A stretch of 31,824 nucleotides of DNA from positions 1 to 31,824 of the forward strand of contig JBEKDF010000032.1 in the NCBI GenBank assembly GCA_050014495.1. Reading direction: 5' to 3'. The DNA comes from Candidatus Bathyarchaeia archaeon (GTDB taxonomy: Archaea > Thermoproteota > Bathyarchaeia > TCS64). Each line of letters begins with the position of its first letter. Position 1 is the stretch's first letter. Positions 1-31,755 of the stretch are shown piece after piece. The position numbers and the translations under genes are program-made. The notes below the pieces were generated by a model that saw only the letters and a program-made list of their open reading frames with translations, was not told the origin of the DNA and ran no database searches.

Positions 1-369
1 TCCATAGAAGTATGCGTATCCAGTCTAGGTCGAGTGAGTCAAGCACACGCTCAACGTTCAACCTACACTCAAGGAAGAGTTATGCGATGTATTATTTAAT
101 TTCTAAACAGCCTTGCGCGCGCGCAAGCTATAGTTTAATGCGAAGAGATAAATAACCAATTAGAGAGAGCACTCAAATTATGTGGATTTGAGGCGCGCAC
201 ACAGAGGGAAACATTACATACTATGGGGAGGGTGCGTGGAGATGGCATTTCCCTCCATATTCAACAAGTCTGGCGTGACATAATCTTATCCTCACTTTCA
301 TCTAATAGTCAATCGTGATTTGTTGATCCGTTGATTATCAGATATGAGTGCCTGCGTATGCAACTTACA

Positions 370-561
370 CTATTTCCTTCTCTTCCTATAATTAGCTAGG
401 ACAATGATTGTTACGAGCAATCCCGCTACGATGAAGCAGGTTGGGAACCCAGGTACACCGCCTCCACTTGACGTCTGCGATGTTCCTCCACCACTGCTTG
501 TCTTTGTTGGCAGAGAGAGTGTACTAGGCGGTGAGGGGAGAGTTCCTATGATCTTGAAGTC
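370..561 (-). pseudogene. C-terminal remnant of a surface protein with PGF-type sorting signal
   Basis: Manual translation DFKIIGTLPSPPSTLSLPTKTSSGGGTSQTSSGGGVPGFPTCFIVAGLLVTIIVLANYRKRRK*: S/T/G linker, VPGF, TM helix, basic tail. No start codon; begins at the (CG)n tract 561-569. Confidence 0.75.
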
Positions 562-620
562 GCGCGCGCCTCATGCGCAAAGTCTTAAGTCCATTTCCCT
601 TACTTTAACAGCGAATCTAC

Positions 621-2192
621 ATGGATCTTAAAGGGTGCTACATGATGGCCGCTGGCAAGAAAGCCACGGCCGACGGCTCGGTAATGGTTGCCAGGAGCTG
701 TGACTCCATTGGGGGCGACGACGTCGTTCAGGTCTTGGCAGTCCCAAGGAGAAGCCACAGACCCGACGAGTTGATAACAATCCCTGAGGCTGGAGGAACA
801 AGGATAAGTCAAGTAGAGGAGACCTGCGCATACATTGGCGTGATGATGGTCGCTGAGAACGTCGATATCCATGAGGCTGAGGGAGGAGTAAACGAGCATC
901 AGGTAATGGCTGGAGCTTCAACGGGTGGTTGGCTTAATCCTAGGGCTCAGGAATTATGCCCGAAGATGCTGACGAGCGTTGGAGACTACAGGATGACCCT
1001 CGTCCTAGAGCGGTGCAGGACTGCGAGGGAGGCCGTGGATCTGATTGGGGAACTAACAGATAGGTATGGTGCGAGGACCGACAACTATATAGTTGCGGAC
1101 CCGAAGGAGGCTTGGTTCTACGAGGAATACCAGGGAAACCTCTGGGTCGCGGCGAGGGTTCCAGACGAATGTTTCGTTGTACAGGCTAACTCGGTGCGAA
1201 TCGACTTTGTCAGCGATGACCCCGATGTTTACAGGTGTTCAAGTAACCTTGTGAGCTTCGCTAAAGAGAAGGGGTTATACGACCCAGATAGGGATGGGGT
1301 CTTCAACCCTGCGAAGATTTATGGCGCCCAGACGGGGAAAAAAAGGCACAACATCTCGGCCCCAGATTACGACCGGAGGCGAATCTGGAGGGGCATCAGC
1401 CTACTGGCACCCTCGGCTAAACCGGAACCTGAGGAGCCGAGTTGGATGTATCCCCTCTTCATAAAGCCAGATGAGAAGCTCACCCCCAGAGACTTCTTGG
1501 CGCTTTTCGAGGACCACTATCAGGATACGAGGTATGATCCATATGGCGTAAAGACTAGTCAGTACAAGCCCACGTATAGCCCCATGATTGCACAGGGGGA
1601 GGGGCACGAGGTAAAGGAGTCGTTATTCCACATAAACGATCAGAGGGAGTACCAGTTAGCACCCAACTGGGGAACTGAGCGGCTGATCGGGACCCCCCGG
1701 AGCGTAACAAACTGGTGCGCTCAGCTCAGAGACTGGATGCCCAACCCCATCGGGGGTCTCATCTGGTTAGGCATAAGCGAGGGTGCGACGACTGGGAGGA
1801 TACCCTTCTATTGCGGCGTCAAAGATACGCCGAAAGCCTTCGCCACCGGGATGAGGGCCTTTGTGGAGAGTAAAGACCCGACTATGATGAACCCATATGA
1901 CCCAGCGTCGGCATACTGGAGCTTCAGGATAGTAACCAACCTTGTGAACCTGTTTTACACAGCTACGAAGGACGAGGTGATACCCATATGGAGAAGCTGG
2001 GAGGCAGATAATTATCATCTTCAACCCGCGGTTGAGAAGGCGGCGTGTATGCTATACCAAAACGACCCAGAGTTGGCACGAAAATTCCTGACGACGTACA
2101 GCTGTGCTAAAGCAAACGAAGCGCTGGTGATAGCCAAGGAGCTGACAGCAAGGCTATACACCATCATCAGCCACTACAACTCTCCCCTCTAG
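621..2192 (+). CDS. Peptidase family C69 (dipeptidase/secernin-like, Ntn-hydrolase)
   Basis: N-terminal GC nucleophile followed by GKKATADGS..ARS; GVNEHQV; LVLERCRTAREAV; ADPKEAW; WVAARVPD motifs. Confidence 0.9.
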   Translation: MDLKGCYMMAAGKKATADGSVMVARSCDSIGGDDVVQVLAVPRRSHRPDELITIPEAGGTRISQVEETCAYIGVMMVAENVDIHEAEGGVNEHQVMAGASTGGWLNPRAQELCPKMLTSVGDYRMTLVLERCRTAREAVDLIGELTDRYGARTDNYIVADPKEAWFYEEYQGNLWVAARVPDECFVVQANSVRIDFVSDDPDVYRCSSNLVSFAKEKGLYDPDRDGVFNPAKIYGAQTGKKRHNISAPDYDRRRIWRGISLLAPSAKPEPEEPSWMYPLFIKPDEKLTPRDFLALFEDHYQDTRYDPYGVKTSQYKPTYSPMIAQGEGHEVKESLFHINDQREYQLAPNWGTERLIGTPRSVTNWCAQLRDWMPNPIGGLIWLGISEGATTGRIPFYCGVKDTPKAFATGMRAFVESKDPTMMNPYDPASAYWSFRIVTNLVNLFYTATKDEVIPIWRSWEADNYHLQPAVEKAACMLYQNDPELARKFLTTYSCAKANEALVIAKELTARLYTIISHYNSPL

Positions 2193-2551
2193 ACGATAAC
2201 GTATTCTCCGCCGATAGGGTAGGTCCCGACTGAGGCCCTCTTGTTGGCGACCCTCTCACGCGCGTACAGCTAAGACCAATCCCGATGAACCTCTGAGGGC
2301 ACCTCCTGAAGGTAGAATCTTCTAATCTGGTCTGGCGTAAGCACAGGGAAGCCCTAGGAATCATGAATAAAAACGAAACCGCATCTACCGAGAGGACGGA
2401 TGGGAGAATGAAACTGCGAATCACACACACATTCCCGTATACTATAATTAATAACTAGGGTGCGCGCGCGTTCGTCGATTGGCTCTTGGTCTGATGCCTA
2501 TCGCTACTTATGGATAGGCGAAAAAGGAATAGCTCCACATTATTTCTAGGA

Positions 2552-2712
2552 GCCATAGCCTTATCCTCACTTCCACCTGAGTGTTACCAGTGATTCTATG
2601 GTTGACGCACAGACGATTGGAGTATGCGTATAACATGATTGGTTGATGTCGTAGCGTTCTACTGCAGGATGGTTTTAGCGCTAGAGATGCGCGCATAGGA
2701 TAAGGCTATGGC
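2552..2712. repeat. 161-bp segment bounded by a perfect 16-bp inverted repeat
   Basis: GCCATAGCCTTATCCT at 2552-2567 and its reverse complement AGGATAAGGCTATGGC at 2697-2712. Confidence 0.85.
2555..2580 (+). repeat. 26-bp dispersed repeat ATAGCCTTATCCTCACTTCCACCTGA, copy 1
   Basis: Identical to 19880-19905. Related copies at 279-300 and 18286-18309. Confidence 0.9.
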
Positions 2713-4160
2713 ATAGTCGCATATCTACAAAGAATGCCTGCGGCGCTCTTCTCACACTCACGAAGACCCTTAACCACACCATTCCCCTCCATTACAAAAT
2801 ACTCGTTAGGAGCATGGGCTCGCGTTCCGTGGCCCAGCATCCCATAACCGAATCCGCCGGGGAGGTTCAAAGGCGTATTAGTGAAGAGGCTGAAGGGGGC
2901 ATATCCAACGTTTCGAACATCTATATGTGGTTTGAGCCCGAAGCGCTCATATGTCTCGCGGATACTGCTCCAGAGGCTGCTGTTGATGCTGGTTCTCGCC
3001 CACTCGCCACCCGTGATGTCCCGGATCCGGATGTCAGAGTAGCCATGCTTGTCCAGGTGAGCTCGGACCTTCGGGAGGATCTCACTTGACCGCTGATTAG
3101 GCACCAGTCGGACATCCATCTTCACAGTCACCTTATGTGGGAGAAGCGTCTTGCTGCCCTCACCGGTATACCCGCCATAGATGCCGTCGATGTTGATTCC
3201 GCTGGGCTCGCAGAAGTACTTAGTCAAGAGCTCACGCGACTGGGTCTTCTCGTCTAAGATGAAACGATCAACACTGTTCGATGCCTTCTGAGGCCCCCAG
3301 TCATACTCCTCTGCAAGCTTCGCGATTATCTCCCTCTCCTCCTCGTTCGGAGGCTCAACGTTATCATACCAGCCATCGATGAGGCACCTGTTTCCATCCT
3401 CGGTCGTCATGGTCTCAAGGGCGTGAATCATCCGCCAGACCGGGCTGTCTACGATGACCTTCATGCTGCCGTGGATGTCAAACTCTTTTGGTCCGCGTCC
3501 CCAGCTTGCCCCGCTGCACTCGAGCTCCCAGTATCTTATGCCCTTTGTTCCCGGAGTGATTGTGATGTTTCCGTCGAGGGACTGGTTTGCGGATGGGAAG
3601 AACATGGCGTCGGCTTCGTTGAGCTCTTTTTTGTGTTCACTAAGAAATAGTGGGAGGTGTCTGCTGGCCTGCTCCTCCTCCCCCTCCGCGACGAGTAGAA
3701 GGTTGACTGGTAGTTCTCCGTTTGTTTCTCTGATGCTCTCGCAGGCGTTTAGGAACGCCATTAATGGTCCCTTTGTGTTGATTGTGCCCCGGGCAACCAT
3801 AGCAGTTTTGAACGGTGGATAGTCCCCCACCTTGTAGTCGTGGACGAGTGCGGCGTCGAATGGTTTTACCGTCCAGCCCGGCTCGTCAGCTGGCATGCAG
3901 TCGTACATCATGTAGATTAGCAGCGTTCGTTTGGCTCCTGCGTCGTAGTAGCCATATACTACAGGCCACCCTGGAGTTTGGGCGATCTCTGTCTTCTTGC
4001 AGCCAAGGTGCTCAAAGTAGCTGAGGAGGAGCGTGGCGCCTTTCTCCATACCTATGCCTGTGTTGCTGATGGTTGGCTGCCTAATGAATTCCCGGATTCT
4101 CTCGACGTGGTGCTCGTAGCTTGCATCTATGTGGTCATACACTTTTTCGAGGTTCATCAC
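2706..4160 (-). CDS. M20/M25/M40 family metallopeptidase (ArgE/DapE/CNDP-like)
   Basis: YMMYD, ARGTINTKG, EGEEE, DIHGS, KMDVRLVP and AHAPNEY motifs. Confidence 0.9.
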   Translation of the reverse strand: MMNLEKVYDHIDASYEHHVERIREFIRQPTISNTGIGMEKGATLLLSYFEHLGCKKTEIAQTPGWPVVYGYYDAGAKRTLLIYMMYDCMPADEPGWTVKPFDAALVHDYKVGDYPPFKTAMVARGTINTKGPLMAFLNACESIRETNGELPVNLLLVAEGEEEQASRHLPLFLSEHKKELNEADAMFFPSANQSLDGNITITPGTKGIRYWELECSGASWGRGPKEFDIHGSMKVIVDSPVWRMIHALETMTTEDGNRCLIDGWYDNVEPPNEEEREIIAKLAEEYDWGPQKASNSVDRFILDEKTQSRELLTKYFCEPSGINIDGIYGGYTGEGSKTLLPHKVTVKMDVRLVPNQRSSEILPKVRAHLDKHGYSDIRIRDITGGEWARTSINSSLWSSIRETYERFGLKPHIDVRNVGYAPFSLFTNTPLNLPGGFGYGMLGHGTRAHAPNEYFVMEGNGVVKGLRECEKSAAGILCRYATMP

Positions 4161-4224
4161 TATCTACAGTAAATACGATTTACTTAGTGCTTAACTTTTG
4201 GGCGCGCTCATCTTTAAGGGCAAA

Positions 4225-4722
4225 TCACCATACATTTCTCTTATTGAGATAGGGTACGAGGCCTCCCGCTTCGAGCACATCCATCATAAAAGGGGGCAGT
4301 GGTGTAAACAGCAACTTTGTACCCTTGCTCATATTAGTAACTGTCCCAGCTCCAAGATCAAGTTCTAAATCGTCTCCCAGCTCGACGGACTTTGTTATTC
4401 TGGGGCATTCAAGGGCAGGTAAGCCGATGTTGACCGCGTTCCTGTAGAAGATTCTGGCGCAGGATTCAGCTACTACGCAACCGACCCCCGCATACTTTAA
4501 CGCGAGCGGCGCATGCTCCCTACTGCTGCCGCATCCAAAGTTTCTACCCCCGACCACGACGTCGCCTTTCTTCACGTTTAGGACGAAGGCGAGGTCAATC
4601 CCCTCCATAGCGTGTCTCCCCATCTCCTCGTGGTCGGTTAGTTCCATGTATCGACCTGGAATTATGTAGTCCGTGTTGACGTTGTCTCCATACTTCCAGA
4701 CTCTTCCAGATATCTTCATCAT
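4225..4722 (-). CDS. leuD: 3-isopropylmalate dehydratase small subunit (archaeal type)
   Basis: GDNVNTDYIIPGRY, NFGCGSSREHA, ARIFYRNAVNIGLP; coupled to leuC. Confidence 0.93.
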   Translation of the reverse strand: MMKISGRVWKYGDNVNTDYIIPGRYMELTDHEEMGRHAMEGIDLAFVLNVKKGDVVVGGRNFGCGSSREHAPLALKYAGVGCVVAESCARIFYRNAVNIGLPALECPRITKSVELGDDLELDLGAGTVTNMSKGTKLLFTPLPPFMMDVLEAGGLVPYLNKRNVW

Positions 4723-5981
4723 TAGACCTTCCTGGGATCTGTTATATGTCCAGTTAGCGCGGAAGCGGCAGCTACAAAGGGTGAACTTAGGTAAACCTCG
4801 GACTCGGGGCTACCCTGCCGACCCTTAAAGTTCCTGTTGCTTGTAGCGAGCCCTACCTCACCGGGTGCTAGTAGACCGATACTGCCTCCGAAACATGCCG
4901 CACAGCTAGGGTTACTTACAACAGCTCCCGCCTCCATGAGTTCTCTCAGGACGCCTCTTTTCTCAGCCTCTAGGTAGACTTGCTTGCTTGCCGGCACAAC
5001 TAGCATTCTCACATCTGGAGCGATCTTCCTGCCTTTTAGAATTCTGAGTGCCATCTCAAGATCCTCAAGACGGCCATTCGTACAGCTACCCAGAAACACC
5101 TGGTCAACCTTGATATGTTCGACCTCCTGGATAGACTTCACGTTGTCGACGTTATGGGGGCAGGCGACCTGAGGCTCAAGCCCAGATATTGGGACATCTA
5201 AAGTGTACTTGTAAATCGCGTCCTCATCAGCTGTGATCGGCGCTGTATTTTCGTCCGTATCCTCCCTCAGCCACTCGTAGGTTTTCTCGTCGGGCTCACA
5301 TATCCCTGCCTTGGCCCCGACCTCGATAGCCATGTTGCAGAGAGTCATTCGACTGCTTACACTCATATCAGTAACGGCTTTTCCTCTGAACTCGAGTGCA
5401 GCATAGGTTGCCCCATCGACTCCGAGAAGTTTAGCGACGCGAAGGATAACATCCTTAGAGGTGATGAAGTCGGGCAACGTGCCAGTGATGTCGACCCTTA
5501 TCGTCTCAGGTACCTTGAACCAGAGCTTCCCGAATGCGAGGGCCGCCCCCGCGTCTGTGCTGCCGACGCCTGTGGCAAATGCTCCGAAGGCGCCGTAGGT
5601 ACAGGTGTGACTATCCGCGCCCACAAAAAGATCACCGGGTTTAACCATGCCGTACTCAGGGACTAGTTGGTGACAGACTCCCTCACCAACATCGAAGTGG
5701 TGAGAGATGCCTTGCTCGCGGCTGAATGCCCGTAGCTCCCTATGAACTTTAGCGGACTGAATTGTGCAAGCCGGCGAAACGTGATCGAGCACAACGATTA
5801 CCCTGCCTGAGTTCCAAACCTGCTTCTTACCCATATCTTTCAGGGCCCTCACGGCGAGGACGCCGGTTGCATCATTGATCATGCAGGCGTCGACTCTTGC
5901 TTTGACAACCTCTCCAGCCTTAACTGAGTCGACTCCGCTGTGTGCGGCGAGTATCTTCTCGCTGATGGTATGGCCAGTCAT
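4722..5981 (-). CDS. leuC: 3-isopropylmalate dehydratase / homoaconitase-family large subunit
   Basis: GADSHTCTYGAFG, FLGSCTNGRLEDL, CAACFG, TSNRNFKGRQG aconitase-family motifs. Confidence 0.93.
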   Translation of the reverse strand: MTGHTISEKILAAHSGVDSVKAGEVVKARVDACMINDATGVLAVRALKDMGKKQVWNSGRVIVVLDHVSPACTIQSAKVHRELRAFSREQGISHHFDVGEGVCHQLVPEYGMVKPGDLFVGADSHTCTYGAFGAFATGVGSTDAGAALAFGKLWFKVPETIRVDITGTLPDFITSKDVILRVAKLLGVDGATYAALEFRGKAVTDMSVSSRMTLCNMAIEVGAKAGICEPDEKTYEWLREDTDENTAPITADEDAIYKYTLDVPISGLEPQVACPHNVDNVKSIQEVEHIKVDQVFLGSCTNGRLEDLEMALRILKGRKIAPDVRMLVVPASKQVYLEAEKRGVLRELMEAGAVVSNPSCAACFGGSIGLLAPGEVGLATSNRNFKGRQGSPESEVYLSSPFVAAASALTGHITDPRKV

Positions 5982-7486
5982 TTCTTTCCCCTCTTCGTCA
6001 TGCCACTGAATACATTCACGCCCTTTAGATAGGCATCAACACTCGCTAGAACTATGTCCTCATTTGTGCTGCGGCTTGAAACCACGTATTCGCCTTGTCG
6101 AAGATTGACCTCAACGTTCACCCTGGCGTCGGTTCCGCCTGTGATTGCCTCAACGTTGTATACGTCTAGGTGGACGCTCTGGTCATGGATCGCCTTGTTG
6201 AGGGCTTTGATGCATGCGTCGACGGGGCCGTCCCCTGTGGCGGCTTCAAGAACAGTCGAGCCGTTCCGTCTAAGCTTCACACTAGCTGTAGGAGTGATCT
6301 TGTTCCCCGTTGTTACTATGAACTCCTCGAGGACTAGTGGGGCCTCAACGCGATTCCCTGTTACTTCCTCGGCTATTGCGTAGAGTTCTGTGTCGCTGAT
6401 GTGTTGGCCGCTGTCTCCTAGATCCTTGACCTTCGCGAAGATGGCGTCAAATTGTTCGGTGGTGGGTTCAAAGCCCATCTCTTTCAGGCTCTTGGTGAGT
6501 CCTGCGCTTCCTGTATGTTTGCCAGTGACTATTCGTCTAGATGCGCCGACCAGGGCTGGGTCTATGGACTCGTAGGTGTGAGGGTCTCTCAGTATCGCAT
6601 GTGTGTGGATCCCGGACTCGTGGGCGAAGGCGTTTGCACCGACTATCGCCTTGTTAACCTGAACCACTATACCCGTAGTCCTGCTGACGACTTGACTCAC
6701 TTGCTGCAGCTGTTCAAGCCGTACACTTGTCTCCACCTCGTAGAGAAGCTTGAGGGCGACAACCATTTCCTCGAGACTCGCGTTTCCAGCGCGCTCACCT
6801 AGTCCGTTGACTGTTCCGTGGAAGTGAGTTGCACCGCCCTCTACCGCCGCTAAGCTATTTGCTACAGCCAAGCCAAAATCATCGTGGCAGTGTACTCCTA
6901 GAGTCAATTTTGGGAAGACGCTGTTGATGTGTTTGTAAAAGTGGTAGCTTTTCTCAGGAGTTAGTGCGCCAACTGTATCGCAGGGTGTGACCCTGTCGAC
7001 GCCTGAGCTGATAGCTCTTCGAATTATTTCCTCTATGTAGGGAAGCTCTGTTCAACTTCCGTCTTCGAGGCAGATCTCTACTACGAGTCCGTGACTTTTC
7101 GCGTAGCTGACAACGTCTGAGGTAATGTCCAGGACCTTGTCCCGTGTTTTTCCCAGCTTTTTCTTGATGTGTAGGTCGCTTGTAGGGATGATGATGTTAA
7201 CAGAGTCTACATTGGCATCTATAGCCGCGTCTATGTCTTTTTTGACGCTCCTAGTCGCGCTACAGATCTCGGCGTCGAGTTTGGCGTTGGCTATTAGTTT
7301 AACGGCTTCCTTCTCCCCCGCTGAGACCGCCGCGAATCCCGCTTCGATGACGTTGACTCCGAGGGCATCTATGGCTCTAGCTATTGTGAGTTTCTTTTCC
7401 TTTGTCAGGGAAACGCCGGGTGTCTGCTCTCCATCACGGAGTGTAGTGTCTAAAATTGTTACTGACTTAGGTTTTTCACCAAATAA
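5978..7486 (-). pseudogene. leuA: 2-isopropylmalate/citramalate synthase (LeuA/CimA), interrupted by an in-frame TGA at 7052-7054
   Basis: One frame reads [23 protein letters not shown]...[13 protein letters not shown]...HCHDDFGLAVAN...NGLGERAGNA...AHESGIH...GDGPVDA. No ATG/GTG/TTG in the N-terminal part of that frame; TTA at 7484-7486 sits where the start is expected. Confidence 0.85.
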
Positions 7487-7606
7487 AACGATACCCCATT
7501 ATTTCACGCTCACGTAGCTATTCGCAGTCTCTCAGTGACATTTAAGCCTATGCGTTATGCAGGCGCTAGATAGATTCAACTGTTTCGAGCGCGCTGAGAT
7601 CGAACC

Positions 7607-8026: not shown

Positions 8027-8096
8027 ACGGGTATGACTCGCGGGTGCTTGTTAAAAAGTGGTTACTTCTTGAGGAAGTTGGGTTTGGTCGCGCGCG

Positions 8097-8355: not shown

Positions 8356-8494
8356 TTCGGGGAGATGCCGCGCGAGCAGAGAGAACGCTGAGAGTTTCAC
8401 AAGCCAGGGTCCGTGAAAGCATTGCGGGAGAAATTGTGCATTTAACAATAATTTTTAATTATATGGTATTTACTGTAATTTATTTGATTATGTT

Positions 8495-9682: not shown

Positions 9683-9720
9683 TCCTACTATGCCCGTGCG
9701 CGCTCTTCGCTAGCCACTAC

Positions 9721-10938: not shown

Positions 10939-11111
10939 ATCCCTATTTTATTATCTATAATTCAATATAAAGTGCAGGACTAGACAAATGTGTTCGCGAC
11001 GATTCATATGATCAGATTAGTGTGGCACAGTATCAGGCTTCGCTTGATGAGAGGGCCTATTCCATCGCGGAGAGCTTTCTACATCTATTTTGCGCGCGCT
11101 TGGTATAGTTT

Positions 11112-11966: not shown

Positions 11967-12318
11967 ACTTGACCCCTTCCTAAATATCCTAGAGAGTGGA
12001 TAAAAGACTGCATTAATTACTTTAGTGTTAACGATTTTTTTACCAGCGCGTGTATCAATGACAAAAAATAAACCATTTTTCCATGCGCGCGCTTCGTGGG
12101 TGGTAAGAAGAAACCATCAGACAAGCTTGGAGAAAAACCATGAATATGTTTAGAGGTGTTCCGGTTTTTAAGGCGATGAAGCTCGCCTTCAATTGTATGC
12201 GCGCGCTTATCTCATTGTCTATGTTAATTTGATCGGTACGCACATAACCAAGCATCGCGCGCGGTTTCCTTAGCTTTAAGGTGTAGCCTTTCACAACCCT
12301 ATCTATGCTTGGGGTCTC

Positions 12319-12918: not shown

Positions 12919-13039
12919 GTAGTTGGTTGTGCGCTTGCTCGTCTACAGGTTCCTTTTCTAGCCGCAATATAATGAAGGTGCACGCGCGCGCAAGTTTTAT
13001 GTATACACAAATTCTAGAGCAATAATAGCAACCGAATTC

Positions 13040-14226: not shown

Positions 14227-14427
14227 CTGATTAATGCGCGCGCGAAGAATGATGAGGAAACGATAATATGTACCGCCAAAGCCTTTGGTAGAAGGGCTCT
14301 CTCCTCTTGTGAATATTACCTAATAGTTGGTTGCTGTGTCCGTCTGTCTGTTTGTCTTAGAGAGTATAGGAGAGAGTGTAGAGGAGAGAGTTGGTTATTG
14401 AGTTAGGCGTAGTTAATAGCAGGGTTT

Positions 14428-14460
14428 GGGTTTGGGGCCATAATCTTATCCCCCAAACCC
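14428..14460. repeat. Hairpin with 10-bp stem whose loop is the CCATAATCTTATC core motif
   Basis: GGGTTTGGGG (14428-14437) pairs with CCCCAAACCC (14451-14460). Confidence 0.65.
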
Positions 14461-16364: not shown

Positions 16365-16383
16365 AGACATCTTTGTGCGCGCG

Positions 16384-16604
16384 ATGTAGTCGGTCTGGAG
16401 CCGCTCCAGGGAAGTCTTCAGATAATGATCAAAATCCCCGCTGCTTCGGACCAGAAAGGTGGGAAGCTTGGTGGCGATCCTAACCCGCTTTCGATACTCA
16501 TCCTTCAACACGATCCAAATTATCTTCTCGCTGTCGCCGAGATGATGCATCCAGGTCGAGTCAAGATAATTTATGCCAAGATCTATTCCGTGATGTATGA
16601 TCGT
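16384..16604 (-). pseudogene. Internal fragment of an aldo/keto reductase
   Basis: IIHHGIDLGINYLDSTWMHHLGDSEKIIWIVLKDEYRKRVRIATKLP...LKTSLERLQTDYI matches the AKR pattern GINY.DTA..Y...SE...ATK...SL.RL.TDYID; both ends abut (CG)n tracts. Confidence 0.85.
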
Positions 16605-16703
16605 CGCGCGCGCTGACTTCCATTCTAGAGACTGTATCATTATTGGAACCTATCTCGGTTTAATACTACTCGTTAGAACAGCTCAAAGTTTGCGAACGAA
16701 CGC

Positions 16704-16793
16704 TTAGAATATGTCAACAATTCTAGGAGTCCAACTCTTGCTTTCTCCCCTAAGATACATCGCGAACAATAATGCCTCCTCGTTGATCAGCGT
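16704..16793 (-). pseudogene. C-terminal remnant, probably of an archaeal solo Cas1
   Basis: TLINEEALLFAMYLRGESKSWTPRIVDIF*. Resembles from memory the C-terminus of archaeal solo Cas1 proteins; not searched. Starts at tract 16794-16803. Confidence 0.5.
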
Positions 16794-17092
16794 GCGCGCG
16801 CGCCGGAGATTGCAGGGCTCTGTTCAATGTAATAATCCATTTGACATTGTATTCTTCTGACTGAGCCTAGTTCAGCTGTCTGCTCAAGGAATCAGCTCCT
16901 TCTGTAAGAGCTGGAGAGTGCATCTCAGTTTTCCGAGATGAAAGATTCCTGAGTGCAACGTATCCTCTCAAATCGAGAAAACATAATCGTCTCTACGAGA
17001 TTCCGTGCACAAATTGATTGCTTAAAGGCGCACGCTTGTATGTATCGCTCACAAAAAGCTACAAATGATCTACCAAATACGCAACTAAGGCG

Positions 17093-19863: not shown

Positions 19864-19960
19864 CCTCATCTTACGTGCAATAGCCTTATCCTCACTTCCA
19901 CCTGATCCTCGAAAATTTAACCCAAATTGAATTTGGCATAAGCCTCATCCTAGTGTGCAA
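19864..19960 (+). repeat. Cluster of the dispersed motif, including the 26-bp copy at 19880-19905
   Basis: CCTCATCTTACGTGCA, ATAGCCTTATCCTCACTTCCACCTGA and CATAAGCCTCATCCTAGTGTGCA (19937-19959) in direct orientation. Confidence 0.8.
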
Positions 19961-20089
19961 TAACGATTCAGAGCATCGATAAGAATCACCGTGAGGAGAT
20001 TGGAGACGCCCTCGCATCAGTTTAAATCGATACGACTTTGCATGTGCAACGTTCTATTAGATTCGGATAGGCTATTCAAAAATATACAT

Positions 20090-21027: not shown

Positions 21028-21038
21028 TATGGTATGTC

Positions 21039-23224: not shown

Positions 23225-23239
23225 TGGAGAGTAAGTGAA

Positions 23240-23686: not shown

Positions 23687-23689
23687 GCC

Positions 23690-24498: not shown

Positions 24499-24921
24499 CT
24501 GGTCACCTACAAGACCGTTACTGAGTGGAAGAGCGGTCACCTAGGTGAGGTACGACTCAGTAATGGCCCGGTGCTCCCATTCTCCGCCCCAGTATCTGCT
24601 CATGGTGTTGAAGGTGTACTCACCCCCGAAGATGCTTTCGTGGCTGCCCTGAATACTTGTTATATGTTAATGTTCATCTGGAGCGTTGAACGGCTCAAGA
24701 TAGATCTGTTGAGTTACTCATGCGAGGCTGAGGGGCATGTCGAGGAGTTCCTCGACAGGACCTCAACCTTCGACAAGGTGACGCTCAGGCCAAGGATTGT
24801 CGCGAGAGGTTGCGATGAGATTAGGGTTAGGAGAGCCTTGGAGCTGGCTGAGAAATACAGCTTGGTATGGCAATCCATTAAGGCGAATGTTACCTTGGAG
24901 CCTGATATAGTCATTGAATGA
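24499..24921 (+). CDS. OsmC/Ohr family protein, probable CTG start
   Basis: Frame is open from CTG 24499 (VTYKTVTEWKSGHLG...FSAP...TPEDAFVAALNTCY...VTLRPRI...AEKYSLVWQSI); GGAGG 8 nt upstream. Confidence 0.82.
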   Translation: MVTYKTVTEWKSGHLGEVRLSNGPVLPFSAPVSAHGVEGVLTPEDAFVAALNTCYMLMFIWSVERLKIDLLSYSCEAEGHVEEFLDRTSTFDKVTLRPRIVARGCDEIRVRRALELAEKYSLVWQSIKANVTLEPDIVIE

Positions 24922-24936
24922 GTTGGGTGATATGAT

Positions 24937-25005
24937 GTGAGCGGCATTGTGGAGATATGGGAGGCAGATCCTAGGGGTATCTCCGGGTGTGCATGCAATC
25001 CGGTA
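24937..25005 (+). pseudogene. N-terminal remnant of a Cys-containing protein paralogous to 28198-28428
   Basis: MSGIVEIWEADPRGISGCACNPV versus MKVEIWDSDPTSGCCCGPG; SD-like GGGTGA upstream; cut at tract 25006-25014. Confidence 0.65.
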
Positions 25006-25014
25006 CGCGCGCGC

Positions 25015-25259
25015 ACCTCAAAGTATACGTAGCACAGCTTCATAGAACTATAAGGAATAATGGTTCACTATTGATCATAGAAATCGAAAAATCTGATAAC
25101 ATTTTCACTAGACTTTTCTTTGAGGATATCATTGGTTTTAAAGAGCCACCGGGTTTGAGTCGGGACGAGTTAGTTAAATGTTTAGGAGATAGCGGATTCG
25201 AAAATATCGAGGTAACATGTAAATCTGGATTACTGTATTCCATATCAAAGAAAAAATGA
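25015..25259 (+). pseudogene. C-terminal remnant of a class I SAM methyltransferase
   Basis: LHRTIRNNGSLLIIE...LSRDELVKCLGDSGFENIEV is a typical methyltransferase C-terminal half; visibly AT-richer than the DNA left of the tract. Confidence 0.7.
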
Positions 25260-25274
25260 GAAATAAAAATAAGT

Positions 25275-25403
25275 TCATCCACAGCAGTTCGTGCTTACGC
25301 TTGGAATTTCCTTCTTTTTCTTGTCCTTTGAAGTATCCTGAGAGGAATCCTTTGTAGAACCTTGTGCAATACCCGAACAACCACATCCCCTTTTTTCGCT
25401 CAT
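25275..25403 (-). CDS. 42-aa Cys-rich peptide
   Basis: MSEKRGCGCSG...STNCCG*, with AT-rich promoter-like DNA upstream. Confidence 0.45.
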   Translation of the reverse strand: MSEKRGCGCSGIAQGSTKDSSQDTSKDKKKKEIPSVSTNCCG

Positions 25404-25538
25404 AGCATTATCGCCAAAAATAATTAAGAACACTAAGAATATAATCATACTTAACAAAAATTTAAACCAAAAAACGCATATAACTAAAATTATTAGGTGA
25501 GTTAAGTGAGTCCGACCTGATTACTTAAAAAAGAAAAG

Positions 25539-25973
25539 CTAACCATGGAAAATCTCGGTAGACAACGAAATAACGCTCCGAGTCTTACCGACACCCTCTA
25601 TTGAGGTAATCCTTGCCAATAGCTTAAGGAAGGCTGACGTATCTTTACAAACTACCTTCACAATCATATCCTCATCACCATCGGTATAATGAGCCTCGAT
25701 TATCTCTGACATCGTCCTTAGTGTCATAACTACATCTTCTCTGCAGCACGATGGATGATTAAGAGTTACCCCGATGAATGCTGTCAGAGTGAGTCCTAGT
25801 TTAGCATAGTCAAGGATCGGAGCGTACCCCCGTATGATCCCGTCCCCCTCCATCCGAATGATCCTATCCCTAATCGTAGGCGTTGAAAGGCCAATCTCTA
25901 AGGATATGTCCGAGTAACCTGTCCTAGCGTTCTTCTTCAGGATCTCGAGAATTTTATAATCACTTTCATCCAT
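25539..25973 (-). CDS. Lrp/AsnC family transcriptional regulator
   Basis: MDESDYKILEILKKNART...IGLSTPTIRDRI..ME..GIIRGY; RAM domain ending IEGVGKTRS. Confidence 0.92.
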   Translation of the reverse strand: MDESDYKILEILKKNARTGYSDISLEIGLSTPTIRDRIIRMEGDGIIRGYAPILDYAKLGLTLTAFIGVTLNHPSCCREDVVMTLRTMSEIIEAHYTDGDEDMIVKVVCKDTSAFLKLLARITSIEGVGKTRSVISLSTEIFHG

Positions 25974-26118
25974 GTTCTATTTTCCTTCTTTTTTTAAGTT
26001 GCCCCCCGGTGAAACAACTACTCTCCTAATATTTTACAGATATTTACCTTTTATCATTAATATTTTAATGAATATAGATATAACTCCTAATTATCTTAAT
26101 CTGCGACAGGTGTACGGT

Positions 26119-27051
26119 TTGGTGGAGGGTTGGACCCTATTCGGAATCTTCCTGCTTGGAATACTCGCTGTGATACTGTTAACCTCGAAGGCCAAGGTGC
26201 ATCCGTTCCTGGCCATGTTTACGGTATCAATTGTTGTCGGCCTCGTCGCAGGCATTTCTCCCGCGAAGATGACTGATGTCATCATCTCGGGTTTCAGTAG
26301 TTTCATGGGTTATATTGCCATCATCATCGTGTCTGCGACTATCATTGGGGAGCTTATGGAAAAGACCGGGGCAACCATCGTAATATCGAAGGCTCTCCTG
26401 AGCCTCGTTGGGAGAAATAGGTCACCGGTTGCAGTAGGGCTCGCGGGTTTCATTGTGTCTATCCCGGTGATATGCTGTGACACCGCCTTCCTGGTTCTCT
26501 CACCGCTTGCCCGCGCCCTCTCAAAGGGCAGCGGATTCAGTCTTAGACTCTATAGCCTTGCCCTTGCAGCAGGCGCCCTCACCGGTTTTAAGCTGATCTT
26601 CCCCTCTGGCCCCCTGTTCCCTGCTACAATGTTTGGCGCCGATGTCACAAAGGTACTCATTTTGGGAGCAGCGGCATCGATCCCTGTACTGGCAGTTGGT
26701 CTGCTCTTTTCATACAGGTTCGGGGGAAGCAATGATGTAAAAGATGATGAAGAGATAGTGAGTTTTGAAGAACTAGCTAAGAGCTATGGTAAACTGCCTG
26801 GTATCGTGGCATCGTTTAGTGTACTCCTCGTCCCCATTATCCTGATTGTTAGCCGTTCGATATTCGACAATCTACTCGAATCATCCAACTCGATTCGCAT
26901 CGTCTTTGATCTTATTGGTCATCCAGTTCTAGCATTGCCGATTGGAATTGGAATAGCATTGTTATTGGCCAAGGATAAGCCCCGGGATGATGTAAACAAC
27001 TGGATCACAGGCGGTATACAAAGGGCAGCCACCATCTTAGTCATCGTAGGT
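26119..27051 (+). pseudogene. GntP-family permease, C-terminally truncated
   Basis: KVHPFLAM, IIGELMEKTGA, GFIVSIPVICCDTAF, IGHPVLAL. Homology stops at ILVIVGA, where tract 27052-27061 starts. Start position approximate. Confidence 0.8.
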
Positions 27052-27212
27052 GCGCGCGCGCAACTGGGTACAGGACAATTACCCTCATGAGCATATTACT
27101 AGGAATAACTGCACTCGCAGCAATCGTTATTGTTGCACCTTTAATCGGAGCTTAGAACCATGCAAAAACAATTTCAAGGAGCAAACACTGAGCAATCCCC
27201 CGAGGGAGTTTC

Positions 27213-27914
27213 ATGACATCGAAGACACTAATCGGTATCATAGGAGACTACAAACCCAGTTATGATAACCATAAGATGACGGACCTCTCCCTTCAACATT
27301 CCTCGGGCCGCCTCGGGTTAAGTGTTGAAGCTGAATGGTTACCCACACCAACCCTCAAAGATGATGCCAAGCATATAATGGGCAAATTTGACGCCATTAT
27401 CTGCGCGCCGGGGAGCCCATACATGAGCTATGAGGGAGCACTCAACGGCATAAGATACGCCCGAGAAAACGACCTACCCTTCATAGGCACATGCGGCGGC
27501 TGCCAACACGCAATAGTCGAATACGCTCGAAACGTCATGGGCATCCACGATGCGGAGCACGCTGAGGAGCACCCCGACGCCAATACCCTCTTTGTCACCC
27601 CACTCACATGCTCGCTCGTGGGAACAGTCGCTGAAGTAATGATCCTTCCAGGGACACATGCCTCCAAGATCTATAATTCAAAGACCACGATGGAGCGATT
27701 CTACTGTAACTACGGCCTCAACCCCACCCGTAGAAAAGACATCGAGGCCGCTGGACTTCACATCTCAGGACTAGACGCAGAAGGCGAACCAAGAATACTC
27801 GAAATACCAAAAGCAAGATTCTACTTCGCAACGTTATACGTTCCCCAGGCCACCTCAACCGCTGAACACCCGCACCCCATGATGACCAATCTACTCAAAG
27901 CCACACAAACCTAG
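27213..27914 (+). CDS. Stand-alone CTP-synthase-like glutamine amidotransferase domain
   Basis: PGSPY, IRYAREN.LPFIGTCGGCQHA.VEYARNV.GI.DAEHAE, CNYGLNP; no synthetase domain. Confidence 0.85.
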   Translation: MTSKTLIGIIGDYKPSYDNHKMTDLSLQHSSGRLGLSVEAEWLPTPTLKDDAKHIMGKFDAIICAPGSPYMSYEGALNGIRYARENDLPFIGTCGGCQHAIVEYARNVMGIHDAEHAEEHPDANTLFVTPLTCSLVGTVAEVMILPGTHASKIYNSKTTMERFYCNYGLNPTRRKDIEAAGLHISGLDAEGEPRILEIPKARFYFATLYVPQATSTAEHPHPMMTNLLKATQT

Positions 27915-28197
27915 CAAACCCAATACCAACTAAATTCAACACTATAACAAGCACAGATCACCATGCGTGCGCTCAAATAAGGGGAGATTTTGATAAAGAA
28001 ATTAATGATTAAGTACTACACTTTGGGTTTGTAAAATATTCTTTAACCGCCTCAATGATGCTCCTATCGGCCAAGATACGTGCAGACCTACCCGGAACCT
28101 CAGAGATTGTGATAAGGTTACGGGAGTCGGAGACAAATACGTTGCAGTGGTCCAAGTTCCACGGAAGCCTTGCCAATCACATCAGCAACGATTCCCT

Positions 28198-28428
28198 TCA
28201 CTTCCTCTGAAAGAGCGATCTCAACCTCAGGTAGCTACTCATAGGCCCCCGGTGGCTCGCAATGTCTACTTCGAACTTGATATCCTTGAACTCGTTTCTC
28301 AACCTCTTCACGATCATATTCTTCTCATTGATGACGTCCATGATCAGTTGGATAGCCTGACGTAACATCATCCCAGGCCCACAGCAACAGCCACTCGTAG
28401 GATCCGAGTCCCAAATCTCAACCTTCAT
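28198..28428 (-). CDS. Small CCC-motif protein, ArsD-like N-terminus, possibly truncated
   Basis: MKVEIWDSDPTSGCCCGPG; follows the Fe-S protein gene on the same strand. Confidence 0.55.
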   Translation of the reverse strand: MKVEIWDSDPTSGCCCGPGMMLRQAIQLIMDVINEKNMIVKRLRNEFKDIKFEVDIASHRGPMSSYLRLRSLFQRK

Positions 28429-28448
28429 GTTTTCACAATCCGTTAGTT

Positions 28449-29009
28449 TTACAGTGTTATCGGTTGAAGCAGCCTCTTCATACCCGTGGCGTCCAGGTAG
28501 GGGCAGTTCTCGACGCTTTTCTCACCAATGAACAATTTGGAGGCGAAGGTGTAGCAGCCGCTTTCGCCACACTCCTTACAGTTTGTCTGTGGCAGTTTCT
28601 TATTGATTACCATTGGGCTCAGTTTCTTCTTCTCCTCGACTAAGTCGATAGGTATCTTTGAGTGGGTGGCCTTGTAGGCTAGGCAACGGTTCAATAGGTC
28701 AGTAATCTTCTTCTTTAGGTCCTTGAGCTCATCATCGTCCTTGATGAACGTCACCGCGACCTCTCCATTGTAACCGACGACCACATTATGTCTGTCGAAC
28801 GAGTAGCTTGTGGTCTTGGAGGACTCGGAGTACCTTGCGTTGGGCGCTGCTAGGAAGAGGATGGGTAATATGCTCTCCAGTTTCTTGTCAGTCTTGGCTA
28901 TGATTTTAAATCTCTCTGGTTCTGCCAGGCATGGTGAACGGTCGACTTCCTCGAACTTCTCTATGTATATGCCTTTGAACAGGAGCCCTCGAAAATTGTC
29001 TTTGCTCAT
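28449..29009 (-). CDS. (Fe-S)-binding protein with C-terminal putative FeS domain
   Basis: LPQTNCKECGESGCYTFASKL...CPYL; N-terminal PCLAEPER. Confidence 0.82.
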   Translation of the reverse strand: MSKDNFRGLLFKGIYIEKFEEVDRSPCLAEPERFKIIAKTDKKLESILPILFLAAPNARYSESSKTTSYSFDRHNVVVGYNGEVAVTFIKDDDELKDLKKKITDLLNRCLAYKATHSKIPIDLVEEKKKLSPMVINKKLPQTNCKECGESGCYTFASKLFIGEKSVENCPYLDATGMKRLLQPITL

Positions 29010-29141
29010 GCTCCTACTCCAACACTAGAGTTGTATGCGCGCGCGTGGATAGTAAGTGTATCAGTCATGTAATTGGTGCATTTATATGACTTTTTGCTGT
29101 GCGCACGCAAAAAGGGTCCCATGTGCGAGTGTTTTAGTTCT

Positions 29142-29369
29142 CTACTTTTTCTTGATCACGATGATTGTCTCGTCGCCATCCTTTTTGAGGGAGACGACTT
29201 CGTCGCCGAGGCGTTCGGCTAGGCGGCGTAGGTCCTCGTAGGCGGCGGGGTCGTCGGCGTGGACCTCGATGGTCTGGCCGGCGGCGATCTCGTCGAGTGC
29301 CATTCTTGTGCGGAAGACTGGTTCGGGGCAGAAGAGGCTCGTGCAGTCCAGAGTCATGTCGGCCATCAT
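29142..29369 (-). CDS. tusA: Sulfur carrier TusA/SirA family
   Basis: LDCTSLFCPEPV, ADDPAA.EDL; 75 aa. Confidence 0.9.
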   Translation of the reverse strand: MMADMTLDCTSLFCPEPVFRTRMALDEIAAGQTIEVHADDPAAYEDLRRLAERLGDEVVSLKKDGDETIIVIKKK

Positions 29370-30082
29370 TCTTCCTCCTCGGTGCTTCTGACTCTTGGGG
29401 GTTGGGTCATCGGGATCACTTCCTCCCTCACGTATTGTAGGTATTGTCCCTGGTCGACGGTGTTGAATATTGTGACTGAGCCGTCTCGGACGAGGCCGAC
29501 AGTGTAGCCGTACTTCTTGCTCTTGGCGAGTACGTACCAGGGGTCGCCGATGCTGTCGTATTCCTTGAAGAGTTTGGTGTCGACGAGGTCTGGTCCGTAG
29601 AGGCTGAGTTTGTTGATGTTTGGGATGTTCATGTTCTCGAAGAAGATGACTTTGGTGCCCTCCTTGTTGGCGATGTGGAACTTCTTGAGGGTCTCTGGGA
29701 GGATGCGGGCCTCGACTATTACGCCCATTTCGCCGAAGATGATCTCGCTTAGCCTGTTGGCGATCCTGTTTGCTATTGCCTTCTTGTCTACGACTGCTAG
29801 GTAGGTGCGGTTGTCGTGTTCGCTCATGCTGAAGAGTATCTCCTTCGTGGCTGCTGCGGGTAGAATTTTACCGCGGTGGTAGTTGTAGACGATGTGGTCG
29901 TAGCTGTAGAGTCCCGTGAGGACGCCTTCGGTGACGTTGACGTTCGCTACTTCTGTTAGGAGTGTGAGTTTGAAGTCGCCTTCGGCGTAGTCCTCCTCCT
30001 GCTTGAAGCCCTCGAGGGCGGCGGCGACGTCGGCGAGCTTCTTGTACTCCGTTGAGACGAAGACCTTCCCGGCTGTGGGCAT
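29366..30082 (-). CDS. Hypothetical protein coupled to tusA
   Basis: 238-aa ORF with strong codon bias, ATGA overlap with tusA and a TATA-like CTTAAA upstream. Confidence 0.75.
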   Translation of the reverse strand: MPTAGKVFVSTEYKKLADVAAALEGFKQEEDYAEGDFKLTLLTEVANVNVTEGVLTGLYSYDHIVYNYHRGKILPAAATKEILFSMSEHDNRTYLAVVDKKAIANRIANRLSEIIFGEMGVIVEARILPETLKKFHIANKEGTKVIFFENMNIPNINKLSLYGPDLVDTKLFKEYDSIGDPWYVLAKSKKYGYTVGLVRDGSVTIFNTVDQGQYLQYVREEVIPMTQPPRVRSTEEEE

Positions 30083-30226
30083 TGTTTACACCTTACTGGA
30101 GGGGAAGACTGGGCCCAATTTAAGGGTAATGAGAAACCAATCGCGCGCGCAACCCGAGGGGCATCAAACGATGGGACCTTTGAGAGTATGGAATCCGCGT
30201 AGGCACTGCAACCGATCGCGCGCGCG

Positions 30227-30415
30227 CTAGCTGGGTTATCTGAAGACAATATTAGCGGTTACTTCTATTTGGTTAAACTTGGGCCTGCATCGCAGGCTTC
30301 ACAAACTTCATCGACGGGTGGTGGCTCCGGGGTTCCGGGCTTCCCGTATGAGTCAATAGTTTTAGGAATCGCACTGATGGGATCACTTCTTTGGATTCTT
30401 GATCGCGATAAGTAG
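30227..30415 (+). pseudogene. C-terminal remnant of a surface protein with VPGF sorting signal
   Basis: LAGLSEDNISGYFYLVKLGPASQASQTSSTGGGSGVPGFPYESIVLGIALMGSLLWILDRDK*; begins at tract 30217-30227. Confidence 0.75.
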
Positions 30416-30614
30416 TACCGCAATTATTACCCCAATCACAATAGCTTCGGGTGTGTAAGTGGGTAAGCTTCCTCCAGAGGTTGGTGATGATGCCTGATGT
30501 AGACGAAGTGGGTGGTGTAGCCGTCTGTCCAGTGCTGTGCACCTTTACTATACTGGATGCTGCACCACATAATGACTGCTGCCATAGTATTGCACTCTAA
30601 AAGTCCAGTCGCTT
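30383..30614 (-). pseudogene. Frameshifted C-terminal remnant of a second, convergent surface protein
   Basis: Ends SGGSLPTYTPEAIVIGVIIAVLLIAIKNPKK*, preceded by S/T/P-rich pieces in shifted frames; starts at tract 30615-30624. Confidence 0.55.
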
Positions 30615-30648
30615 GCGCGCGCGCAAAGAATCAGTCATTATCTTCTTT

Positions 30649-30783
30649 CTATAACTTTTCTCCCGCTAGAGCCCTGTACCATTTTTCGTTTATCTCGGTT
30701 GTCTTTCCCTCATCTACATCAAAAAACTTGTTCTCAGTTTCACACTTCCACAGCTTAAACCCGTTTACCTCCAACTCTTTCAT
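30649..30783 (-). other. 44-aa ORF or gene remnant between tracts
   Basis: MKELEVNGFKLWKCETENKFFDVDEGKTTEINEKWYRALAGEKL*. Confidence 0.35.
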
Positions 30784-30795
30784 GGGAGCGCGCGC

Positions 30796-30947
30796 ATTTC
30801 CAGTATACCGATATCTTTCATTGTTTTTTCTGTGACTAGAAACGCTTTTTTCGCTTCGATGTGTTTCACTTCTACATCAATTTTAGCAACACGATTCACA
30901 CCAAAGATAATTTTCTCTGGGTTTCCAAATTCAGCTGTTTTGGCGAT
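30796..30947 (-). pseudogene. N-terminal fragment of an iron-containing alcohol dehydrogenase
   Basis: EFGNPEKIIFGVNRVAKIDVEVKHIEAKKAFLVTEKTMKDIGIL matches the Fe-ADH start F..P..I.FG......G.KKA.LVTD......G; tracts on both sides. Confidence 0.7.
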
Positions 30948-31016
30948 GCGCGCGCGCATTTTTAAATTAAGTCTAGTTTAAATATTTTCAAGTTTAAAAT
31001 TAATTGTGAGATCTAA

Positions 31017-31601
31017 TTGAGAAAAGACTACTTTAGAATAGCGTTTATAGGATTCATAGCGTCGCTAATTTTTTACTTTATTTCGTATTATTTTGAACAC
31101 TCGGGTGTTTCTCTAGTTATCGCCTTAGTTCTTCTCGTAGCTACAATCTACATTTTCGTCCTTAGTATAATTAGGTCAAAACCTACGCCACCATCACCCC
31201 AACCGACGTCTCAACCTTCGCCACCATCTCAAACATCAACTCCTCAACCTTCGCCTCCACCTCAAACGGTGTCTCCATTTCAAACAGAGATGATTGAGGA
31301 AACCGCAAAGCCTGAGCAGTCTTCCACTCCGCCCTCGCCACAATCTTCGACACCGATCTGCCCAACTTGCGGACAGCCACTTGTTTTCTTGGAAGATTCC
31401 AAGAAGTGGTATTGTCAGAATGAGAAAAAGATAGTTATCACACCATCTCAGATAATCGAGAAAGAATTGGAGGCTGAAAAAAGGGAACTGCATAAAGAGC
31501 TTGATATTCTGGATAAACATCTGTCAGAAGGAAAAGTGAGTAAAAAAGTCTATAGGGAGCTTAAACACAAATATAAGTCACGATTAAAAGAAATAGAATA
31601 A
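31017..31601 (+). CDS. Membrane protein with Pro/Ser/Gln linker, zinc-ribbon-like motif and coiled-coil tail
   Basis: Two N-terminal TM helices; PSPPPQ repeats; CPTCGQPL...WYCQNE. Confidence 0.75.
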   Translation: MRKDYFRIAFIGFIASLIFYFISYYFEHSGVSLVIALVLLVATIYIFVLSIIRSKPTPPSPQPTSQPSPPSQTSTPQPSPPPQTVSPFQTEMIEETAKPEQSSTPPSPQSSTPICPTCGQPLVFLEDSKKWYCQNEKKIVITPSQIIEKELEAEKRELHKELDILDKHLSEGKVSKKVYRELKHKYKSRLKEIE

Positions 31602-31755
31602 AGAGCACCCACCAATCCTAGAAGATGAGATAAATTAATAGAACTTCATTGTACCTATTTTTTAATCCGAGTTTTTAAAAAAAGAGTATAATAGAAAAAA
31701 ACGCGCGCGTATTTCAGTTTATATTCTAGGCTTTCCAGATAGAATTGGATATAAA

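Follow-up and report, generated by a model that had tools for sequence, protein, structure and literature searches.

Alternating CG tracts as filler at DNA joints in Bathyarchaeia, and a candidate primase-plus-RNA module that may write them

Tracts and gene remnants in the window

The DNA analysed here (the window) is a stretch of 31,824 nucleotides that makes up contig C32 (JBEKDF010000032.1) of G000, a 3.1-Mb metagenome bin of a Candidatus Bathyarchaeia archaeon with 7.5% contamination; our subject is a set of short alternating CG tracts in it, together with a small primase-like gene and a structured RNA that may account for them. Perfect alternating runs of C and G of 8–11 nt occur 21 times between positions 115 and 31709, exactly the number given in a first-pass annotation of the same DNA. 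That annotation had expected about one by chance, and an order-2 Markov simulation of the window indeed yields a mean of 0.9 runs and a maximum of 4 (200 simulations). Each of the other five alternating pairs of letters forms 0–2 runs of at least 8 nt, and tract density is 6.6 per 10 kb in the window vs. 1.0 on contigs longer than 80 kb. The sequencing runs that best match the window are peat metagenomes, and there is no RNA run among the listed runs carrying window DNA.

Only three of the 21 tracts lie in open reading frames (ORFs) of at least 100 aa (8089, 16605 and 27052), these being one ORF without a Pfam match, a fragment of an aldo-keto reductase and a truncated GntP permease; the earlier statement that no tract falls within a recognisable intact gene therefore stands. 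Remnants of genes, in contrast to intact ones, often end at a tract. The aldo-keto reductase is an internal fragment (16377..16613, minus strand) held between tracts 16377–16383 and 16605–16613; a Cas1 fragment (10989..11099, plus strand) ends 10 nt before tract 11092–11099, and the 3' piece of a Cas1 gene (16719..16803, minus strand) starts at tract 16794–16803; the GntP permease (25972..27061, plus strand; profile positions 5–310 of 440) is truncated at tract 27052–27061; a 162-bp copy (96%) of DNA from contig C30 (30615..30795) is enclosed by tracts 30615–30624 and 30788–30795; and a 5' gene fragment (30798..30957, minus strand), whose relative on C49 continues, lies between tracts 30788–30795 and 30948–30957. 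The last is a remnant of a small PriS-like (AEP) gene with its upstream region (2194..2415, minus strand; 81–82% to C53), in which an internal deletion of ~160 bp is sealed by a 6-mer at 2259–2264, with collinear tblastn matches on both sides of the 6-mer. The aldo-keto reductase and the C30 copy have a tract at both ends. In all, these remnants number seven, close to the "at least eight" claimed earlier.

A (GC)5 tract at 115–124 adjoins the end of an insertion sequence (IS) of an IS5/IS1182-like (DUF772/DDE) clade, of which bases 1–114 (minus strand), with the first transposase codons, remain before the contig break (99–100% to the ends of C1, C31, C43 and C71; tblastn match 88–2, 86%); the earlier remark that no integrase was in view is thus to be corrected, since a transposase is. 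Free tracts of 9 nt lie at 561–569, at 2462–2470 (upstream of the AEP remnant) and at 12983–12991; those at 14236–14244 (9 nt past a stop codon) and 29037–29045 are AT-flanked; that at 25006–25014 sits where GC content drops; and that at 8089–8096 has a counterpart, correspondingly placed, in a paralogous thioredoxin region on C40. Three tracts (12085–12092, 12199–12206 and 12256–12263; region 12085..12263), bridged in runs X3, X5 and X12, stand around pieces of 106 and 49 bp, and tracts 30142–30150 and 30217–30227 (30142..30227) around 66 bp. The DNA rightward of tract 31702–31709 (31702..31824) is present as well on C76, where it follows an IS end, and on C30, where no tract accompanies it. 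A cassette system, as the "cassette-like mosaic" of the first-pass annotation might suggest, does not fit this arrangement, since breakpoints fall inside genes and free tracts have almost no common flanking sequence; whole genes swapped at conserved recombination sites, as in integrons, were not what we found.

Contigs of other sequencing runs bridge 16 of the 21 tracts with at least 31 letters on each side, which answers the worry, raised from the start, that reads might not span the junctions (tracts 115, 561, 2462 and 8089 were left out of this comparison, and tract 31702 has too few letters on one side). Six bridging runs (X3, X4, X5, X10, X12 and X14; 2017–2022) carry the same joints, and joints shared by strains differ by point changes and 2-nt slips. 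Tracts 30217–30227 and 30615–30624 are 2 nt shorter in runs X14 and X12, respectively, indicating that tracts slip after being made.

Filler at joints and the insertion sequences beside it

Across G000 there are 459 runs, of which 192, 144 and 111 measure 8, 9 and 10 nt, and only 12 are longer; GCGCGCGC is the most over-represented 8-mer of the genome (1024 occurrences vs. 60 expected). The genome-wide count of coding against intergenic tracts that had been called for places them mostly in non-coding DNA: ORFs of at least 150 aa make up 76% of the genome and hold only 42 of the 459, 30 of these no more than 150 nt from an ORF end. Genomes of the class differ widely in this excess, with hundreds of tracts in some (e.g., G021, a single contig, 92% complete, with 250 GCGCGCGC) and 0–2 in G001, G010 and G024 of the same family as G000.

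If the tracts were native sequence at which DNA is exchanged, relatives should possess them at the corresponding place. A relative of at least 80% identity that reaches the tract was found for 75 of 887 tract flanks in G000, and the run is absent there in 70 and present in 5. These 70 relatives overlap the run by 0, 1, 2, 3, 4 and 5 nt in 25, 25, 15, 1, 3 and 1 cases, and beyond the breakpoint they go on as unrelated sequence. Among 721 free tracts of at least 7 nt, both flanks are collinear in one relative in 31 cases, eight of which are deletions of 109–455 bp with the tract in place of the lost DNA; the other 23 represent either a 7-mer arisen by chance or one and the same site met again in a duplicate record or a relative. 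No clean insertion or excision footprint in an intact gene was seen among the 721 (473 of which have no testable relative), and among the many relatives whose lost segments were checked for a perfect GCGCGC, just two had one, both concerning a single site. Neither the intact paralogue of the aldo-keto reductase (on C25) nor the C30 donor has a GC run at either fragment end. The suggested search for alternative neighbours at a tract succeeded at 27052–27061: in run X12, the DNA to the right of this tract has a different left neighbour and no tract.

The tracts are thus filler, foreign to both neighbours and seldom longer than 10 nt, that seals deletions and captured fragments. This bears out the first-pass view of them as scars of a recurrent joining process and fits its option of end joining with GC-repeat fill-in. 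Its other options, i.e., crossover at existing palindromes or a nuclease or recombinase acting at native GCGC, are at odds with the 70 of 75 relatives without a run and with lost segments mostly free of GCGCGC. Even if the mechanism proposed below should fail, a lineage-specific filler at hundreds of joints per genome is unexplained in the literature we searched.

GCGCGC also adjoins most ends of the IS clade seen at the left edge of the window. Its elements, of ~1.1–1.3 kb, encode a single DDE transposase (PF01609 with PF05598, the DUF772 domain) between terminal inverted repeats, and derivatives of 290–680 bp have matching ends; the named records nearest to the transposase are almost all from Bathyarchaeia. 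The longest exact repeat flanking 47 intact elements is 6 bp in 25, 4 bp in 9, 8 bp in 8 and 0–2 bp in 5, and in one element (L021) a non-consensus base is duplicated, which points to a 6-bp duplication. Emptied of the element, the sites would measure 6–10 nt in 40 of 41 elements (partly so by construction), a size compatible with insertion into tracts already present. At IS ends, too, the run does not belong to the flanking DNA, and we found no site with both a filled and an empty allele. When the IS was considered as the source of the free tracts, the target motif proved not to be native at the breakpoint or in the lost segment, and we read this clade as a tenant that uses the tracts.

Short derivatives of the IS (~460–490 bp; L004, L012, L022 and G000 C48:7153-7515) carry, where the transposase would be, a gene of ~120 aa that by eye resembles a helix-turn-helix regulator, and a Jordarchaeia record (L043) holds a fragment of a transposase relative in which GCGC precedes end-like sequence. 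In five instances, an IS110 element (361 aa, PF01548 and PF02371) occupies the exact point between a DDE-element end and its GC run (G000 C17:57461-58773, which is L411, and C48:5777-7090; L201; L118; L035), and its left non-coding end contains stretches that match both sides of the target in the manner of a bridge RNA.

A small primase gene, its RNA and the edges of the scars

The gene of which the window holds a broken remnant has one intact copy in G000, on C53, encoding 268 aa (family length ~270 aa). Nearly all of its 91 homologues come from short contigs, and only four distant matches to this primase family came from viral contigs. The PriS catalytic motifs are present, these being, as we take them, the residues D99, D101, S148-G149, H154, H156 and D205 that are invariant in 49 homologues. 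The protein scores 27.8 bits against PF01896 (cut-off 26.8), its best PDB sequence matches are PriS (E 4e-13), and its predicted structure has a pLDDT (predicted local distance difference test) of 91.6. Of the suspects named in the first-pass annotation, the primase-polymerase lead was the productive one. A second PriS-like gene (439 aa; G000 C20:26050-27366, L216) was rejected as a candidate: among 18 genomes of the genus only 5 have it at full length, and it went undetected in the tract-rich G011 and G016. This second gene adjoins one for a 670-aa membrane protein.

In G119, G111, G155 and G164, a conserved non-coding RNA of ~110 nt begins in the last codons of the small primase gene, and a loose His-Pro-Glu-Pro-like pattern, which is the translated 5' end of the RNA, closes 50 of the 80 homologues that reach the C-terminus. 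Its layout is two hairpins with GA motifs (presumably kink-turns), a 5' end that pairs with the second loop to form a pseudoknot, a linker, and then an A-run; the sequence of the 5'-end/second-loop pairing differs between lineages. Across nine copies of the G000 type, 91.7% of cells are paired, a value that none of 500 shuffles reached, and 6 changes are two-sided; the structure was drawn from the same sequences, and one divergent copy contributes many of the changes. The RNA has no Rfam match. A structured RNA with a putative template between its stems is thus linked to the enzyme gene in these four genomes, and the link is lost in G000, where none of the 8 RNA copies lies behind the primase gene and none in the window. 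A search with fixed words over 301 genomes returned 14 matches, including the known G111 copy; the f17/f23-type RNA model had no match in G000, and no RNA was detected in G292. As a side observation, unrelated genes, for a 351-aa protein and for a 93-aa family (G000 C62:3400-4455, C53:9948-10229 and C56:4541-4822), likewise have RNA of the G000 type starting within their final codons, in the manner of a mobile 3' module.

Set against the scars, the RNA's central linker in most lineages ends in what reads as the reverse complement of the local scar edge: GCGCAU goes with T- or AT-flanked tracts, GCGCU with TA(GC)nTA, and GCAU with ATGCATGCAT. Scars were counted on both strands as ATGCGCGC/TAGCGCGC/TACGCGCG, and the ten genomes given here are those counted with both words, out of 38 run for the first word. 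Where the linker is mostly GCGCAU (five genomes of this genus), the counts are 273/84/87 in G000, 177/68/74 in G016, 140/59/93 in G011, 125/41/28 in G005 and 66/44/47 in G012, single RNA copies in G016 and G011 deviating from this linker. Where it is GCGCU (five genomes of two other families), they are 35/325/35 in G111, 25/256/32 in G137, 35/329/17 in G113, 56/472/60 in G106 and 33/248/119 in G119, the last of which also has a GCGCGU copy. Within G000, the base before a tract that starts with G is T in 359 of 575 cases (62% vs. 36% expected), and the base before that T is A in 158 of the 359 (44% vs. 28% expected). Read-through beyond the template is not seen in G000 (ATGCGCC is not enriched, 282 vs. 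318 expected).

Two further lineages extend the comparison. The RNA halves of G103 end in GCAU before the A-run, from which ATGCATGCAT was predicted. Three genomes of the genus proved to have 192, 138 and 68 occurrences (the reversed word 0; G000 3), in a test that is partly circular because all three G103 copies are cut at the linker, where scar and template merge. In G155 the linker ends CCGGCCGU, and among the matches listed its genus mate G292 has ACGGCCGGCCGT at least 7 times, a word that reads as two ACGGCCG tails overlapping by CG. Scar edges thus follow linker ends in most lineages, the exceptions being one G111 copy, L032, G155 and G164, and in G000 the match extends to six letters only (see below).

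How the tracts may be written

We lean towards the explanation that the tracts are written onto broken ends by the small primase-like enzyme, which would copy a short template from its own structured RNA. A resected 3' end would pair with the last bases of the linker, and the primase would extend it by a few nucleotides and slip back one repeat unit once or twice; because the tail would be self-complementary, any two tailed ends could anneal over 2, 4 or 6 bases and be sealed by host enzymes. In the G000 lineage, a linker ending in GCGCAU would give (A)T-GCGC plus extra GC units, presumably from RNA acting in trans, and the IS clade would then insert into GCGCGC with a duplication of 4–8 bp. 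A PriS-like domain by itself is capable of reverse transcription in vitro (PMC3973330), and DRT10 uses 2-nt homology to reset and withstands loss of its spacer (bioRxiv 2025.10.16.682844).

Several observations weigh against this explanation. The G000 linker has only four alternating letters and explains six letters without slippage; two plain copies would make 4–6 nt, so tracts of 8–10 nt need slippage. The preference for AT in G000 is ~3:1 vs. at least 7:1 for TA in the GCGCU lineages. The gene-linked GCGCGU copy of G111 is not reflected in TACGCGCG, in L032 the copy ends in GCGCC with TA-flanked tracts next to it, G164 has no matching scar within 40 kb, and ACGGCCG is not enriched in G155 itself (111 vs. 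137). Moreover, the covariation rests on about four independent motif states, kin not being independent, and a 400-bp difference in run X14 carries no tract. The distribution of the parts is also uneven: the intact C53 gene has lost its attached RNA, the 8 copies in G000 lying behind other genes; the RNA was detected in 15 of 80 and 12 of 40 genomes (the best 48–100 candidates being scored per search, here and for G021); the tract-rich G021 yielded neither gene nor RNA; G106, G137 and G103 show RNA but no gene; and a search for the gene at E 1e-15 had hits in no more than 16 of 301 genomes, for the most part remnants, four of these hits belonging to another PriS-like family. That intact genes are so scarce suggests a module that is gained and lost, leaving scars.

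A different enzyme chemistry could produce a similar outcome. A polymerase might add the repeat with no RNA template, by slippage or protein templating, and the linker would then be derived from scars, or the RNA would guide a mobile module to them. Many RNA copies stop precisely at the linker, RNA of the G000 type is found after unrelated genes, as expected of a mobile module, RNA-guided use of such sites exists in G000 (the IS110 with guide-like matches to the GC run), and G021 has tracts with no detected RNA. We nevertheless regard this as unlikely, given that intact gene-linked copies in G119, G111 and G155 have an unbroken fold and different linkers, that the linker keeps a fixed position before the A-run, with the scar edge matching its end in the copying direction, and that a change of motif from lineage to lineage is unexpected from an untemplated enzyme. 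Similarly improbable is an account in which the tracts are the termini, targets and excision scars of the DUF772/DDE IS clade and no separate writing enzyme exists. Positions 3–6 past IS ends that begin with GC are GCGC in 90–96% of cases (243 ends, some of them chosen by pattern), 37 of 184 contig ends in G000 carry such an IS end, counts of IS ends and tracts are correlated over 25 genomes of the family (Spearman 0.60, kinship ignored, which fits either direction of cause), and the emptied sites resemble free tracts. The evidence so far has already weakened it: only 31 of the 459 tracts touch an IS end; intact genes lack clean footprints, and at deletions the tract belongs to neither side, the lost segment mostly being without GCGCGC; no member of the clade was detected in the scar-rich G103, G154 and G215 (93–99% complete) or in G106, nor any DUF772 match in G015 (20 contigs, 177 GCGCGCGC); the ATGCATGCAT scars and lineage-specific flanks would be left unexplained; and IS ends in G292 keep to GC runs despite the CGGCCG-type palindromes available there.

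Host enzymes are weaker suspects. Genes for Ku, a LigD polymerase and a ligase-phosphoesterase lie together on C3 of G000, and this pathway may well seal the joints, but that it also fills them with GC repeats is very unlikely: among five genomes examined, Ku is present in the tract-poor G001 and G010 (one GCGCGCGC each) and was not found in the tract-rich G021. Still harder to credit is a solo Cas1 that integrates fragments at GC runs and duplicates the run. G000 does have 11 Cas1-like matches on 9 contigs, two of them the fragments in the window (10989-11081 and 16719-16793) and the others, many likewise fragments, on C18, C80, C46, C6, C79, C24, C73 and C17, and fragments are bracketed by tracts; however, Cas1 was not found in G021 or G106, two single-contig, scar-rich genomes, deletions sealed by a run foreign to both sides would go unexplained, and the Cas1 pieces are themselves cut at tracts. 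Both of these first-pass suspects are thus present in G000, and we rejected each as the writer of the tracts since neither tracks them across genomes. A reverse transcriptase was also rejected, with no PF00078 match in G000, G016, G013, G001 or G010, and no repeated element was found beside the tracts of G021 (no cluster among 280 arms from 400 kb). Finally, we attach practically no weight to assembly chimeras or library artefacts: G000 is a metagenome bin with some contamination, but the joints recur in six other runs, strain-shared joints have diverged by point changes and slips, and many other genomes show the excess.

Other features of the window include three short multi-copy repeats (2552–2625, 14336–14460 and ~19880–19963), which have copies in relatives, the first with many copies in G000, and an isopropylmalate synthase-like ORF (5978–6907) with only the last 70 positions of the catalytic domain in that frame.

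Returning to the templated primase, its most general form is that Bathyarchaeia carry a mobile primase-plus-RNA module, a telomerase-like end tailer that would write a lineage-specific, self-complementary repeat on any DNA end, drive deletions and fragment capture, and create landing sites for the IS clade and for an IS110 that targets that clade; for this we see the chances as evenly balanced. If it holds, an AEP primase acting as an RNA-templated repeat adder would be a second origin of telomerase-like chemistry, in a fold unrelated to reverse transcriptases, and a new homology-free way of joining DNA ends. It would also explain the shuffling of accessory DNA in a very widespread archaeal class, in which every seam would mark a past break, and changing a few letters of the RNA would reprogramme the seam. 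The idea is cheap to test, as it concerns one protein of 270 aa, one RNA of ~110 nt, and natural variants that predict different products.

Relation to known systems

Archaeo-prokaryotic non-homologous end joining (NHEJ), with Ku, LigD polymerase, phosphoesterase and ligase, employs a polymerase of the AEP family, short overlaps and filler, and its genes are present in G000. No fixed lineage-specific repeat is known among its fillers, however, and the presence of Ku does not follow that of the tracts.

The tenant element, as opposed to the free tracts, can be compared with IS5/IS1182 elements such as IS1272, which, in the available text, share a single DDE transposase with DUF772, terminal inverted repeats and palindromic targets; IS1272 replaces its stem-loop, whereas the clade described here keeps the target on both sides as a 4–8 bp repeat (PMC5678879). 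The IS110 of G000, situated at the boundary of IS end and GC run with matching stretches in its left non-coding end, resembles bridge recombinases (PMC11208160), but an enzyme of this kind depends on a target that is already there and is unable to lay down filler at arbitrary breakpoints. A further comparison is PolpTN2, a primase for replication of the Thermococcus plasmid pTN2. Its archaeal AEP domain, without the PriL-like part, acts in vitro both as a reverse transcriptase and as a terminal transferase, and the available portion of the source describes neither a dedicated template RNA nor genomic scars (PMC3973330). No description of such tracts or of a template-RNA primase was found in the literature searched, outside which most subscription journals and supplements lie, and the available parts of PMC11529989, PMC5678879 and PMC11208160 describe no such system.

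Telomerase and DRT10 differ from the candidate in both enzyme and product: the enzyme here is a PriS-like primase, with no RVT_1 match in G000, and its product would be 1–3 self-complementary units placed inside the chromosome at joints. Telomerase has a short template in a stem-bounded structured RNA, as would the module described here. For DRT10, the available text reports the same kind of template, a product that varies with it between homologues, and the addition of repeats through a realignment for which 2 nt suffice, as the tracts longer than two plain template copies would imply here; DRT10 is, however, protein-primed and antiviral (bioRxiv 10.1101/2025.10.16.682844). Judged by its sequence, the candidate would work in the manner of telomerase and DRT10 and yet stand outside their group, as a primase in place of an enzyme with a reverse transcriptase domain.

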